This document shows, in pieces, positions 9,883 through 15,558 of a stretch of 64,000 nt of DNA. This DNA is from Thermodesulfobacteriota bacterium (GTDB taxonomy: Bacteria; Desulfobacterota; Desulfarculia; JACQYL01), in the NCBI GenBank assembly GCA_963675595.2, contig CAXXLZ010000002.1:3232001-3296000 (forward strand). Reading direction: 5' to 3'. Both the position numbers and the translations under genes were made by a program. Within the stretch, counting starts at the first letter, position 1; each line of letters begins with the position of its first letter. The notes beneath the pieces are model-generated. The model saw only the letters and a program-made list of their open reading frames with translations, did not search any database and was not told where the DNA came from.

Positions 9883-10093
9883 AGAAGCGGGATTCGAGCG
9901 GCCGGCGACGGGAGTGATGCCGTGCAACTGCGCGGCGCTTCTCTAAAGGAACCACCGGCTGAACCGAAGCGGAAAAGATGTTGCTGACCGGGGAATCGAC
10001 GCACAGCCGGACAACACGTCGGCAAGAGCGTCGTGAGCCATGAAAACAACCTTCACGTGGAGATCTCCATCGGGTTCGAGAGGGAACGGCCAA

Positions 10094-11596
10094 ATGAAAG
10101 AAATGGACGGTGTGCATTTGCTGAAAGACCTGTTGAGCGAACTGGACCCGAAGCAACTGCAGCGAAAATTTCTCGGCAAGGTGCTGCAGCTGGAAAACGT
10201 CCGGAGAGGCTCCATCTGGGTGCGAGAGGGTTCGATGTTCCGGTGCGTGGAAGCAGGCGGACCGCACAGCGAAATCGAAGCGGGCTTTGAAATTTCGGCC
10301 GAGGAAAAGAGCATCGTGCGGGCTACGTATGAACGTCGGGAGCGGGTCGTGGCCAACCTGCAACGAGACGATCGCCACTACAAAGCCGTGGAGTGTGGAT
10401 TCGACGTCAAGAGCTCACGCATTCTGGCATTTCCGCTGAACCGCAAGGACGGTTCCATTTACGGCGTGCTGGAACTGATCGATACCAGTCCTTCCGGCGC
10501 TCATATGCGGACCAATGAAGAATATATCGAGCTCATACAGGAAGTTGTGGATGTTTTCGCGGCCCTGCTTTCCAATACCATCTTTTTCACGGAAGAAATG
10601 GAAAAGACCCGAGGACTCCTGGGAAGCAAAGGGGTCAACCTCTATGCCTATCCGAGCAAGCGATTCCAGGAATTGGTGCGATTGGCGGCACGTTTTGCCA
10701 AGTCGGATTACCCGGTGCTTCTGACGGGTGAGAGCGGCACGGGCAAGGAGGTCTTCGCGGAGTTCATCCACGCCGGCAGTCCCAGGGCGCACAAGCCGTT
10801 TGTCGCGGTGAACTGCAGCGCCATCACGGACAACCTGTTGGAAAGCGAGCTATTTGGGCACAAGAAGGGTTCGTTTACCGGAGCCGTCCGGGACAAGGAA
10901 GGGCTGTTCGAAGAAGCCGACGGAGGAACCCTGTTCCTGGATGAGATCGGCGACATGCAACCGGGACTGCAGGCCAGGATCCTTCGGGTACTGGAAGACT
11001 GCACCGTTCGACCCGTGGGCGGCGAACGAAAGGACATGAAAACCGTGAACGTGCGAATCGTGGCGGCCACCAACAAGAACCTGGAAAATTCCATCAATGC
11101 CGACGAGTTCCGGCGGGACCTGTTCTACCGATTGAACGTGCACCCTCTGCACCTGCCTTCCCTGCGGGAACGGAAGGAAGACATCCCGGAACTGGTGCGT
11201 TGTTTCCTGGAAAAGGAGAGCCGCCGGCTCCAAATGCCCATGAAAAGGGTCGCCAAGGAGACCCTGGAAGTGCTCATGGATCGGCCGTGGGAAGGAAATA
11301 TCCGGGAACTGGAGAACCTGGTCAAGAATCTGCTCATCACCACGGAAGGCAACGTGATCCGGCCGGATGATCTTCCCGACTCCGTGCTGCGTCGTCAAGA
11401 AGCCCGCGGAGAGCCCGACGGGAACGCGCCGGTTTTCCAAGGCTACACCTGGGAAGCGCTGGAGAGGGACTACGCGAAGTATCTGCTGGAGAACAACGGC
11501 GGCGTTGTCAGCCGCGCCGCTCGCCAGGCCGACGTGCACCTCAGCACGTTCCGCGCCCGCATCAAGAAGTTGCTGGGAGATACAAAGCCGGTGTGA
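10094..11596 (+). CDS. GAF-domain sigma-54-dependent transcriptional activator (NtrC/NifA-like bEBP)
   Basis: GESGTGKE Walker A, ESELFGHKKGSFTGA, GTLFLDEIGD, FRRDLFYRLNV, WEGNIRELEN and a C-terminal HTH. Confidence 0.92.
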   Translation: MKEMDGVHLLKDLLSELDPKQLQRKFLGKVLQLENVRRGSIWVREGSMFRCVEAGGPHSEIEAGFEISAEEKSIVRATYERRERVVANLQRDDRHYKAVECGFDVKSSRILAFPLNRKDGSIYGVLELIDTSPSGAHMRTNEEYIELIQEVVDVFAALLSNTIFFTEEMEKTRGLLGSKGVNLYAYPSKRFQELVRLAARFAKSDYPVLLTGESGTGKEVFAEFIHAGSPRAHKPFVAVNCSAITDNLLESELFGHKKGSFTGAVRDKEGLFEEADGGTLFLDEIGDMQPGLQARILRVLEDCTVRPVGGERKDMKTVNVRIVAATNKNLENSINADEFRRDLFYRLNVHPLHLPSLRERKEDIPELVRCFLEKESRRLQMPMKRVAKETLEVLMDRPWEGNIRELENLVKNLLITTEGNVIRPDDLPDSVLRRQEARGEPDGNAPVFQGYTWEALERDYAKYLLENNGGVVSRAARQADVHLSTFRARIKKLLGDTKPV

Positions 11597-11606
11597 TTTT
11601 CGTAGA

Positions 11607-11753
11607 CAGCCCGTTGAAAAAGTCGGGTTACGGCAGGTTGTCGAAAAATGATGAGATGCAAGGCGTGCAAATCCTGAGGAATGAAACGTACATAGCGTAC
11701 GTCGCAGTAACGAGGGATGAAGCGCAACGCCGCAGATCGCGTTTTTCGACGCC
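11607..11753 (-). repeat. ~147-bp MITE-like repeat, copy 2 (inverted relative to copy 1)
   Basis: Reverse complement aligns end to end with 9736-9882. Confidence 0.8.
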
Positions 11754-11962
11754 TGGTAAGGAGAGCGACGACGTTGGACCAGAGCGAGAGAAGGCGAAAG
11801 TGGCATCCTCGATGAATTACGAATCGTTGGTTCAGTCCTTGGAGACGCCTGAGAGGTCATTCAACCATCGGAAACGTCGACAGCGGAAATCGAATCGATT
11901 CTATGTGCTTGGACAGGGGGTATCCGGGACAACCTTTTGAAAAGGTTTCCTATGTGGCCTCA

Positions 11963-12180
11963 AGTCAAGCCGGAATTGGATAACCGTTTCCTATTCGCGC
12001 CCGAAGCGCCAAGTACACATGCGATGTAGAAGCGAAGATGCCGCCATTTCCCCAGCGCTACCGATGCAGCCAAACTTTATCGCGGCCGTCTCCGCTTTTT
12101 TCTCCCGGCTTGAGGCTCGGGACCCACCTCAAGTATGGGTCCCGAGCCGGTTGGGTTCTCCTAAACAAGTCCTAACCGGC
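11963..12180 (-). ncRNA. Candidate IS1111 seekRNA/bridge RNA
   Basis: About 220-nt non-coding region downstream of the transposase, with a strong hairpin (GGCTCGGGACCCA/TGGGTCCCGAGCC) and short matches to the donor junction and target. Confidence 0.5.
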
Positions 12181-13269
12181 TCATGCTTGGTCCGCTTGGA
12201 GACGAAATTCATAGGTCCGTTTTTCCATGGTCAATCGCCATAGAACAACGGCCAGTTTCCGTGCCAACGCACAAATGGCCTTTTGTGGAAGGCCCGTTCG
12301 CGACAGGAGTTTTCGATAATGCGAATCAATGGCCGGATCCCTGGACTTCCACGTCCAGGCCGCCTCCACCAACAGACTCCGCAGTCGCGTCTGACCCACG
12401 GGAGGAAGCGCCACTCGAGATTTCCGCTCTCCGCTTTGTCTTACCAACGGTGCGAGTCCCAGATAGCTGGTCACTTCCTCCACCCGATGGAACCGACTCG
12501 GGCGAAACAATTCCAGGAGGAAGGTAGCCGCTGTGATGGGACCCACCCCGGGGACGCTTCGAAGGCATCGCATTTCCTCAAAGTGTTCAGGTTTCTCGCA
12601 CACACTGGAAGTCCTTTCCTCCATGAAGGCTTTTTCCTTTGTGAGGAAATTCAACTCACGGAGCAAGCTGAGCAGCGTCGCTTTGGCCTCCTTCGGCAGA
12701 CGAAGCTTTCGAAGTTGCGCCACAGCGCTTCGGCCCCAATGATTGAGCCCGGGAGGCGCCTCCACACCGTGAAACAGCAGAAGGGATTGAATTCTCTGCT
12801 TAACGCGTCGAGTGCCGTCGGCCAGATCGTGCCGACGGCGAATTACGCTGCGTTCGGCCTCCTCTTCCTCCGTGGGAACGGCGATGGACTTCAATATCCC
12901 TCGGGCGGCATGGTCCGCCAACCGCATGCAATCCAGGCGGTCGGTCTTGGCCCCCGCAGTCACCGGCCTAGGGACCCGACTCGGCGCCACCACGATCACG
13001 CTGAACCCGGCTTTGGCCAAAGTGCGCGCAAGGCCGAAGCCGGTGGGCCCCGCTTCGTAGGCTACGGCTCGGATGCGCCTCAAGTGGGGGAGCAACATGG
13101 CCACGATGGCCTCCGGAGAGGCCGAGGACACAAAAGTCTTCACCTCGCCGTCGCTGCGAAGCACGGCCACGTGGTAGCTCTTTTTGTGTACGTCGATCCC
13201 GACGTGGAAATCACGGTCGATATCCAGCTCCAAAAACTTGGCCAATTCTGTTACTTTCGTTGCTACCAT
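12181..13269 (-). CDS. IS110-family (DEDD) transposase/recombinase
   Basis: VGIDVHKK, YEAGPTG, AKTDRLD, LRSVPGVGP, YLGLAP...QSG; AGGAG RBS before ATG 13269. Confidence 0.95.
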   Translation of the reverse strand: MVATKVTELAKFLELDIDRDFHVGIDVHKKSYHVAVLRSDGEVKTFVSSASPEAIVAMLLPHLRRIRAVAYEAGPTGFGLARTLAKAGFSVIVVAPSRVPRPVTAGAKTDRLDCMRLADHAARGILKSIAVPTEEEEAERSVIRRRHDLADGTRRVKQRIQSLLLFHGVEAPPGLNHWGRSAVAQLRKLRLPKEAKATLLSLLRELNFLTKEKAFMEERTSSVCEKPEHFEEMRCLRSVPGVGPITAATFLLELFRPSRFHRVEEVTSYLGLAPLVRQSGERKSRVALPPVGQTRLRSLLVEAAWTWKSRDPAIDSHYRKLLSRTGLPQKAICALARKLAVVLWRLTMEKRTYEFRLQADQA

Positions 13270-13441
13270 GTTGGTCTCCTTTCTGTTTGGGTGATGCTCC
13301 ATCATAACGATCGAGCACCTGAGGCCAACATGGTATTTTCCCGGCCCCTTTCCCAAACAATTTGAGCGGGTTGCTCGCCGGCGCATCGCAACCGAGGTCG
13401 GGCGGTCTCACTGAATAGGTTACCGGGTCCGTAACAAAAGG

Positions 13442-13534
13442 AGCCTCTCCGCCGAAGGCGGTGAGGCCTGCTTGAAATGTTTAAAGGGGGGCGCACGGGG
13501 GTAGCTTTTTTAAAAGCTCCCCCCGTGAATGCCT
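13442..13534 (+). repeat. REP-like hairpin repeat interrupted at its 3' end by the group II intron
   Basis: CACGGGGGTAGCTTTT/AAAAGCTCCCCCCGTG hairpin; homologous to the reverse complement of 47181-47274. Confidence 0.7.

Positions 13535-15558
<2,024 letters not shown>

Follow-up and report, generated by a model that had tools for sequence, protein, structure and literature searches.

Introduction

RNA-guided target choice by insertion sequences of the IS1111 group, the insertion of one of them (ISPa11) into repetitive extragenic palindromic (REP) sequences, and natural retargeting between relatives have been published (PMC11187229). As described there, the guiding seekRNA of IS1111 elements is 70–100 nt long, with a long form of 145–170 nt, is made and binds the transposase, and carries the complement of the top strand 5′ of the complement of the bottom strand. 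Bridge RNAs with loops complementary to target and donor were predicted in the right end of 93% of IS1111 elements, as stated by Durrant et al (PMC11208160). Here, an element of this type is described from a stretch of 64,000 nucleotides of a Thermodesulfobacteriota bacterium (assembly GCA_963675595.2, contig CAXXLZ010000002.1, positions 3,232,001–3,296,000 of the forward strand). This whole stretch is called the window, and positions without a prefix refer to it. The element is an insertion sequence of 1390 bp at 11949–13338 with its transposase gene on the minus strand, and it is highly likely that a minus-strand RNA from a 232-nt region guides the DEDD transposase of this intact, recently active IS1111-type element.

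Among the described systems, ISPa11 of Pseudomonas aeruginosa comes close: it is of the IS1111 type, sits at a fixed position and in a fixed orientation within REP hairpins, and has its seekRNA downstream with the top-strand complement 5′ of the bottom-strand complement, all as seen or predicted in the window element (according to PMC11187229). Host lineage and target sequence differ, and the two are likened by description, not by sequence. The same source gives 330–350 aa for transposases of the IS1111 group, as opposed to 362 aa here. ISEc11 and ISXne4 share the architecture of the window element and, as reported, have a promoter at the circle junction, which is only predicted here; their natural retargeting by loop replacement parallels what is seen between the window element and a relative of 81% identity, and within the metagenomic pairs L035/L056 and L059/L060 (PMC11187229). 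ISEc11 differs in having a short linear target rather than a hairpin, and its activity was demonstrated experimentally according to that report, whereas activity is predicted for the window element (PMC11187229).

IS621 resembles the window element in its DEDD recombinase (PDB 8wt6, E 3.9e-10) and in its REP target. Its bridge RNA, as described in PMC11208160, recognizes target and donor with one loop apiece; in either loop, the left side is read from the bottom strand and the right side from the top strand, and the core is part of both. According to that description, this RNA is encoded in the left end, ahead of the gene, whereas the RNA region of the window element lies in the right end. The guide order is also reversed in that the bottom-strand guide comes 5′ in the loops of IS621 but 3′ in the loop of the window element. 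With the guide order reversed and the RNA in the right end, the element lacks the IS621-type arrangement; its working would be bridge-like, its arrangement that of IS1111. The subterminal repeats of IS621 are given as only 2–3 bp (PMC11208160), compared with 13–14 bp here, and its donor loop is described as a simple internal loop, whereas the donor segment of the window element is part of a multi-branch loop closed by a stem termed P1. ISPpu9 and ISPpu10 of Pseudomonas putida are likewise described as multi-copy IS110-family elements in REP sequences with a small RNA gene beside the transposase gene. For ISPpu9, extra solo copies of the RNA gene are described, whereas in the genome studied here only the truncated relative at C1:339442–339997 carries a second RNA gene.

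The element adds to a known group and leaves the general mechanism of such elements unchanged, and its clade, or the donor strand of that clade, may already be covered by the supplements of PMC11208160 or PMC11187229. Its limits are well defined, it is present in several copies and is apparently active, it comes from a lineage with sparse sampling (five genomes of the order), and its target, ends and guide loops are fully readable. The retargeting pairs, together with a left-donor guide that tracks the 3-nt right extension in two clades, could help to establish guide rules for IS1111.

Results and Discussion

Ends of the element and its genomic copies

The organism's own genome (6.79 Mb, 3 contigs) was searched at the DNA level with window positions 11900–13400, and the ends of each copy were located by anchoring on the first and last 20 bases of the element. 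Besides numerous short matches comprising flanks only, the search returned eight full-length copies at 99–100% identity, one 555-bp relative at 81%, and one 72-bp left-end fragment. All eight copies start with CCTATGTGGCCT and finish with AACATGGTATTT (plus strand of the window); seven are 1390 bp long and one is 1391 bp. The window copy is flanked by ...CCGGGACAACCTTTTGAAAAGGTTT on the left and TCCCGGCCCCTTTCCCAAAC... on the right, and uninterrupted paralogues at C2:4499788 and C2:201998 read ...AAAAGGTTTTCCCGGCCCCTTTCCCAAAC, which is the 3′ arm and the right flank of the window site joined. As the joined flanks equal the uninterrupted paralogues, the ends are exact and no target bases were duplicated. 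The ends at 11949 and 13338, which an earlier note on this DNA had derived from IS1111 geometry, were thus borne out by all eight copies and by the paralogues. In transposase orientation, 13338 is the left end and 11949 the right end:

11949–13338, minus strand: whole insertion sequence; termini common to 8/8 genomic copies, uninterrupted paralogous sites equal to the joined flanks
13332–13338, minus strand: left terminal extension of 7 nt, AAATACC, the first A's being the core shared with the target; read from the sequence by the 7-nt/3-nt rule of PMC11187229
13318–13331, minus strand: left subterminal inverted repeat ATGTTGGCCTCAGG; aligned to the right repeat over 15 nt with a score of 10 and one indel
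11952–11964, minus strand: right subterminal inverted repeat CUUGAGGCCACAU; from the alignment with the left repeat
11949–11951, minus strand: right terminal extension of 3 nt, AGG; end taken from the genomic copies

The inverted repeats are 13–14 bp long (ATGTTGGCCTCAGG at 13331–13318 against ATGTGGCCTCAAG at 11952–11964, with 12 matches and one indel). Their distance from the ends is 7 nt on the left and 3 nt on the right, as the earlier note had assumed (13332–13338 followed by 13318–13331; 11949–11951 followed by 11952–11964), and here the ends were set independently by the eight copies and the uninterrupted sites. Terminal extensions of 7 bp on the left and 3 bp on the right beyond the repeats are reported for IS1111 elements (PMC11187229).

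The element could, in principle, be a dead fossil, its RNA features relics and its copies the result of segmental duplication instead of transposition. The flanks of two copies, C2:1357377 and C2:3698759, are indeed near-identical over at least 45 nt on each side, through either one duplication or two hits in a repeated unit. However, the flanks of the other six copies differ beyond the target, the transposase reading frame is intact in 8/8 copies and encodes proteins 100% identical to each other, and contigs of sequencing runs labelled as four organisms contain the element, in three other organisms with few differences, which renders a fossil very improbable. Judged from these sequences, the element is intact and apparently recently active.

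The differences in the three other-organism runs comprise T>G at 12097, T>G at 12100 and one base added after 12103, all of which fall in the linker and stem beside P1, and several further changes in the 3′ part of the transposase gene. No changes were found in the target or donor guides on the main contigs of these runs. Contig joints that skip from 11943 to 13336–13339 were considered as evidence of excision and dismissed: their sides are at most 30 nt long with extra letters in between, and they fit paralogous uninterrupted repeats, so that they prove nothing about excision. In three of the four runs, the flank 11764–11891 was without cover. A solo left-end fragment of 72 bp, 97% identical and with no right end nearby, is located at C2:3813470–3813541.

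Guide segments for target and donor

Insertion was site- and orientation-specific without target duplication, all eight copies being located at ...GGG(G/A)|AAA.... In element orientation, the sites read CCGGGGG|AAACTTTC in three copies and CTGGGG(G)|AAACTTTC in two; the remaining three are ATGGGG|AAAAACTC, ATGGGG|AAACCTTT and, in the window, CCGGGA|AAACCTTT. Five of the eight copies thus use the consensus target GGGG|AAACTTT. Segments of the region downstream of the transposase gene match this target and the ends of the element:

11949–12180, minus strand: non-coding region of 232 nt downstream of the transposase gene, predicted seekRNA or bridge RNA; minimum free energy −102.4 kcal/mol, z −4.87
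12072–12078, minus strand: right-target guide AAAGUUU (5′ side of the loop); complementary to AAACTTT, which follows the insertion point on the top strand
12047–12055, minus strand: left-target guide CUGGGGAAA (3′ side of the loop); equals the top strand to the left of the insertion point plus the AAA core and would pair with the bottom strand
11987–11994, minus strand: left-donor guide AUAGGAAA; exact match to the five terminal nucleotides of the right end joined to the three that open the left end
12011–12016, minus strand: candidate right-donor guide GUACUU; faces left end AAATAC with an A·C mismatch at the third base

The right-target guide is exact for five of the eight copies, and the left-target guide is exact over 7–9 nt (GGGGAAA or longer) for seven. 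AAAGUUU (RNA positions 106–112) precedes GGGGAAA (131–137), and the two overlap on AAA, which is the order of a seekRNA. The left-donor guide AUAGGAAA, located 3′ of a small hairpin termed P5, equals the sequence expected at the circle junction, and both it and AAAGUUU are unpaired in the fold of the minus strand. When the non-coding region was shuffled 5,000 times (mononucleotide shuffles), the individual matches recurred in 673, 336 and 166 shuffles, and all three together in 2. The match of this single element is thus moderately convincing, and the comparison with relatives carries the weight.

The earlier note had proposed three guides, written on the plus strand: TTTCCTAT (11987–11994) for the donor, AAACTTT (12072–12078) for the right target, and TCCCGG (12103–12108). 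The former two hold, since both are present and unpaired, the first tracking the ends and the second the flanks in relatives (see below). TCCCGG had to be given up, and the true left-target guide, TTTCCCC on the plus strand (12047–12053), had been overlooked. TCCCGG is paired in P1 (RNA positions 76–81 with 209–214). The 7-nt match GCCGGGA fits the flank of the window copy alone; the other seven copies share the RNA and have flanks GGGG. Furthermore, AAGCCGGGA is kept in the relative L055, whose target is CCTCCC|AAAATTAGA, and in the 81% relative it is replaced by CCGAUU with the opposite P1 strand changed to match. The core of the note, an RNA-guided IS1111 element aimed at a host repeat, is retained; apart from the misassigned and the missed guide, it requires correction in that the guides fit GGGG|AAACTTT better than the window's own site. 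The latter is off-consensus: its right half contains one C too many, and the position next to the core is A where the consensus has G. The window site CCGGGA|AAACCTTT is therefore a tolerated imperfect match.

Covariation of guides with flanks and ends

The nearest relatives have transposases only 50–58% identical, and none of the four other genomes of the order contained a relative at E ≤1e-40. In individual relatives, the guides could be read directly against the flanks. In L055, the right flank AAAATTAGA faces guide UCUAAUUUU, and left flank and guide both read CCCAAAAA. In L057, right flank ATACCATTC goes with guide GAAUGGUAU, and in L061, AAATAAC with GUUAUUU. A Desulfovibrionaceae metagenome-assembled genome harbors seven copies at sites YYC(C)|AAAACTTT, with guides CUCCAAAA and AAAGUUUU. 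Two pairs of near-identical metagenomic elements have guides that differ by 1–2 bases and flanks that differ to match: L035 and L056 (guide/flank GGACUUUU/AAAAGTCC vs GAACUUUU/AAAAGTTC), and L059 and L060 (AAAUCAAAA/CTAATCAAAA vs AUAUCAAAA/GATATCAAAA).

The same is apparent within the genome studied here. The relative at C1:339442–339997, 81% identical at the DNA level, is truncated to transposase residues ∼236–362 and has kept the whole RNA region. Its right-target guide AAAGUUU is unchanged and fits its right flank AAACTTTAGG, and its left-target guide reads CUGCAAA in place of GGGGAAA. Read from the two sequences, this is natural retargeting within one genome. The target predicted for this relative, CTGCAAACTTT, was not enriched in the genome (3 occurrences vs 2.06 expected).

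For a quantitative comparison, 96 sequences were assembled (80 metagenomic and 15 genomic loci besides the window element). Both ends could be set by end motifs, which were used after an automatic inverted-repeat finder had missed most loci, in 59 of the 96; the conserved anchor that precedes the donor guide was present in 51 of these, flanks were complete in 48, and de-duplication reduced the set to 46. The best 9-nt window of the target-loop region was scored against the element's own flanks or those of other elements, with a threshold of at least 8/9. In the near clade (12 sites, 6 different RNAs), the right target was matched by own flanks in 11/12 cases and by others' in 4/90 (p 1.7e-8), and the left target in 4/12 and 1/90 (p 3.2e-5). 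In the far clade (34 sites), the corresponding figures were 20/34 vs 79/1122 for the right target (p 2e-14) and 5/34 vs 14/1122 for the left target (p 0.0085). As related elements are not independent, these p-values overstate the case. The left-target signal across relatives was weaker than that of the right target. This loop-restricted, mismatch-tolerant test had replaced a noisy one that took the longest exact match over the whole non-coding region, in which the right-target signal was already clear.

The donor side was assessed at the 51 anchored loci. The 8-mer following a conserved CGA equals the five last nucleotides of the right end plus the three first of the left end exactly in 40 loci, at 7/8 positions in 4 and at 6/8 in 7. 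Its agreement with the 3-nt right extension amounts to 44/51 (AGG 11/11, AAG 2/2, AAC 25/29 and AGC 6/9), whereas cross-pairs of elements with different ends matched exactly in 8 of 1,570 cases. Thus, as far as can be read from the loci compared, guides change with flanks and ends across relatives.

Folding of the RNA region

The minus strand of 11949–12183 folds at −102.4 kcal/mol (z −4.87), far better than shuffled sequences. The plus strand folds equally well (z −5.67), so stability alone does not assign the strand. From 5′ to 3′, the minus-strand fold consists of two stem-loops, the 5′ strand of P1, a target arm with P3, hairpin P4, a short single strand, hairpin P5 and a longer single strand:

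12119–12182, minus strand: two stem-loops directly 3′ of the stop codon (centroid structure)
12103–12113, minus strand: 5′ strand of closing stem P1, UCAAGCCGGGA, which includes TCCCGG; fold, duplex −21.2 kcal/mol
11965–11975, minus strand: 3′ strand of closing stem P1, UUCCGGCUUGA; fold, overlaps candidate −35 box TTGACT (11968–11963)
12030–12097, minus strand: target-binding arm; fold and 11-sequence alignment
12097–12089 with 12038–12030, and 12086–12082 with 12044–12040, minus strand: outer stems of the target arm (fold)
12070–12057, minus strand: inner hairpin P3 of the target arm, inside the internal loop that carries both target guides (fold)
12014–12028, minus strand: hairpin P4; fold, ACAU/AUGU changed to GCAU/AUGC in the 81% relative
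11997–12009, minus strand: hairpin P5 (GCGCU-UCG-GGCGC); fold, helix 3 of the alignment with 100% paired and 2/4 pairs compensatory

An alignment of 11 sequences (the window element, the 81% relative, and nine further loci of relatives, taken from other genomes and from metagenomes) has a consensus structure holding the inner target-arm stem, P3 and P5. In this alignment, 96.5% of the cells are paired and 8 of 13 pairs are changed on both sides, values that none of 500 shuffles reached. The non-standard cells are eight G·U and no A·C, which favors the transposase-sense strand as the RNA. P1 shows a compensatory change in the 81% relative; its equivalents are calculated at −21.9 kcal/mol in L055 and −11.7 in L031, and are weak or absent in remoter relatives. 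Folding and comparison, which the earlier note had put forward as checks, hence upheld TTTCCTAT and AAACTTT, unpaired and covarying in relatives, and placed TCCCGG in a stem.

An alternative is that the transposase alone recognizes the shape or sequence of the host hairpin, that the downstream region is a terminator, a stabilizer or a transposase-binding site, and that the matches are due to chance. In favor of this, the matches within the single element, being just 7–8 nt long, are individually not rare, the targets are hairpins, and folding is as good for the plus strand as for the minus strand. However, the matched sequences follow the flanks in relatives with unrelated, often non-hairpin targets, they are situated in loops bounded by covarying stems, and the copies at C2:476836 and C2:2980055 are not in hairpins. 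Nor was a terminator-like site found by a consensus scan, either in the region or elsewhere in the linear element. Recognition by protein alone is, accordingly, extremely improbable, and guidance by the minus-strand RNA is the preferred reading.

Reading of the donor side

With regard to the two loops of a bridge RNA, the target loop and the left-donor guide are supported, the right-donor guide partly. In most near relatives, the candidate reads GGUACUU and forms part of a GUACC/GGUAC hairpin stem. The far-clade counterpart, AUUAAC(N)U, lies opposite left end AGATAAT with one mispair and one bulge, and the far-clade loci with left end AGATAGT have ACUAAC in 3/3 cases, a compensating change. 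In L058–L060, left end AAATAAT goes with GAUACUG, which is not compensatory. GUACUU is, from its sequence, a probable right-donor guide.

A short seekRNA alone might suffice, with a functional target loop, AUAGGAAA and GUACUU being kept because they overlap with protein-binding sites or the promoter, and the ends being read by protein through the long inverted repeats. An 82-nt RNA with the target matches alone was sufficient for ISEc11, and end recognition is stated there to be unknown (Siddiquee et al, PMC11187229); the imperfect right-donor match, non-compensatory in L058–L060, and the left-donor 8-mer matching at only 6/8 positions in 7/51 loci point in the same direction. Against it, the left-donor 8-mer tracks four variants of the right extension (AGG, AAG, AAC and AGC) in 44/51 loci, and the left-donor guide is placed relative to a small hairpin as the left-target guide is. 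ACUAAC replaces AUUAAC in all three far-clade loci with left end AGATAGT, and donor-complementary loops are reported in the IS1111 elements inspected by Durrant et al (PMC11208160). Overall, such a restriction to the target loop is unlikely, and an RNA that reads both target and donor remains preferred.

Distinctly less expected is that the donor side in this IS1111 clade is read otherwise than in IS621, for which only a small chance is seen. The mismatch of the candidate right-donor guide (GUACUU; GGUACUU in relatives) is always opposite the third base of the left end, and this position is mispaired in the far clade too. A hairpin whose opposite strand looks like the left end sequesters the candidate in most relatives. 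If the idea were true, this arrangement could serve as a built-in switch, with the donor loop held shut before circle formation, or could mark where crossover takes place. In combination with the mismatched, bulged target of the window, it would speak for a looser, register-tolerant recognition than in the current model.

Several results weigh against an RNA-guided, transposing element. The back-joint of the circle was not seen in the contigs of the four runs. Taken one at a time, the motif matches of the window element by itself are weak, as judged by the shuffles above, and the guides fit the window's own site poorly. An Rfam scan of 11500–13800 with E up to 10 returned no family in 11949–12180, where the sole item, mir-1825 at E 4.9, is at chance level, and among the sequencing runs on record with the stretch, none is recorded as RNA. 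Seven of the 12 near-clade sites stem from one element, so that the independent elements number 6, and in the longest-exact-match test the left target of the far clade was almost without enrichment (7/41 vs 218/1640). Finally, right-donor GUACUU is mismatched to the left end, hairpin-paired in most relatives and non-compensatory in L058–L060.

Transposase and assignment to IS1111

12181–13269, minus strand: transposase gene, 362 aa, stop codon at 12181–12183; Pfam and NCBIfam profile matches

The translation matches PF01548 (DEDD_Tnp_IS110, 1.3e-15) and PF02371 (Transposase_20, 4.1e-22), i.e., it has the DEDD (RuvC-like) N-terminal and the PF02371 C-terminal domain of IS1111/IS110 transposases. 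It scores 228.5 bits with NCBIfam NF033542, ‘IS110 family RNA-guided transposase’ (cut-off 140). Matches to solved transposases are weak (ISCro4, 4.8e-11; IS621, PDB 8wt6, 3.9e-10). GLAPLVRQSG fits the C-terminal motif GL-P----S(t)G, which Siddiquee et al (PMC11187229) give for IS1111 transposases. A search of plasmid proteins returned only generic ‘IS110 family transposase’ labels, the best match being 46.8% identical. The subterminal repeats have the length found in IS1111 (about 11–13 bp), for which Durrant et al report 7–17 bp (PMC11208160), and the non-coding sequence is distributed as in this group, with 232 nt downstream of the gene (11949–12180) vs 69 nt upstream (13270–13338). On these sequence features, the element agrees with IS1111 in every respect tested and is assigned to that group. 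Twelve loci in the same genome belong to two further IS110-type transposase families, with seven copies at ∼28% and five at ∼30% identity to the transposase described here.

The host hairpin as target

11924–11948, plus strand: host hairpin up to the point of interruption, CCGGGA C AACCTTT TGA AAAGGTT T; sequence and paralogues
13339–13436, plus strand: right-hand portion of the hairpin, TCCCGG, followed by the remainder of repeat unit A; 24 other genomic copies

The earlier note had predicted that excision rebuilds the hairpin CCGGGA-C-AACCTTT-TGA-AAAGGTT-T-TCCCGG and that this hairpin belongs to a local REP-like family. The first is corroborated by the arm and right flank standing uninterrupted at C2:4499788 and C2:201998, the second by 24 further copies of the right-flank unit. 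One loose pattern detected 35 palindromes of the type GGGG(G)AAAC(C)TTT-loop-AAA(G)GTTTCCCC in the genome; the 11-mer GGGGAAACTTT occurs 19 times vs 2.6 expected, and GGGGAAACCTTT 25 times vs 0.74. The target hairpin is thus a short imperfect palindrome repeated many times in the genome, that is, REP-like. Being palindromic, the hairpin offers the target word on each strand, so that either arm is usable. Relative to the asymmetric CCCCTTTC... beside the hairpin, three copies are inserted in the near arm and three in the far arm; the remaining two, at C2:476836 and C2:2980055, are outside hairpins. The use of both arms and of sites outside hairpins fits a reading of sequence rather than of shape. 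Of what the earlier note had expected from other copies, identical ends and the site ...GGG(G/A)|AAA... were thus found throughout (8/8), residence in a hairpin in all but two.

Expression signals and predicted transposition pathway

13330–13335, minus strand: TACCAT, candidate −10 box of a promoter present at the circle junction only; proposed by eye
13262–13335, minus strand: hairpin of the 5′-untranslated region (5′-UTR), UACCAUGUUGG.CUC with GAG.CCAACAUGGUA; −32.6 kcal/mol, z −5.85, 0/200 shuffles as stable

Promoters at the junction of the circular form are described for this family (PMC11187229). In the window element, TTGACT (11968–11963) is located 14 nt from the right end and, with the AAA of the left end included, would be separated from TACCAT by a 17-nt spacer. 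Relatives, read by eye, have the same spacing, with TTGACA...TACCAT, or with TAATAT in the L058 group and the far clade. In the linear element, a consensus scan detected one weak promoter-like site in the left end. The 5′-UTR hairpin, whose 5′ arm is at the same time the left inverted repeat, spans the ribosome-binding site (GGAG, 13279–13276) and the start codon. As a transcript starting from the junction −10 box would lack the 5′ arm of the hairpin, translation may be restricted to the circular form. Complementarity in the 5′-UTR is also visible by eye in L055, L056 and L057.

Taken together with published work on ISEc11, ISPa11, ISKpn4 and IS621, from which the steps of excision, promoter formation and pairing are extrapolated, the following pathway may be envisaged. 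The element would excise as a circle joining ...CATAGG to AAATACC..., and the junction would create the promoter TTGACT-17 nt-TACCAT, driving both transposase gene and RNA, while in transcripts begun outside the element the 5′-UTR hairpin would hide the ribosome-binding site. The complex of transposase and RNA would then pair with both strands of GGGG|AAACTTT in an arm of the REP-like hairpin, and also with the circle junction, and recombination would take place within the shared run of A's.

Neighboring repeats and genes

The insertion sequence and a group II intron are adjacent within a nest of small repeats. Between them lies unit B (13442–13531), a ∼90-bp repeat with hairpin GGGGGTAGCTTTTTTAAAAGCTCCCCCC and roughly 70 genomic copies. 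The intron extends from 13526 to ∼15560 (RF02003, 63.4 bits at 13562–13696) and contains an open reading frame at 13951–15402 for a reverse-transcriptase-like protein of 483 aa. It starts with GTGCG just after a repeat hairpin, and its copies, six of full length and two internally deleted elsewhere in the genome, begin at the 3′ edge of unit B. At C2:3665013–3665249, a hairpin unit carries an insert of ∼140 bp in its 3′ arm, about where the insertion sequence sits in the window. Upstream of the interrupted hairpin, an open reading frame of 518 aa (10040–11596, plus strand) contains the motifs GESGTGKE and ESELFGH and, by eye, resembles a sigma-54-dependent activator.

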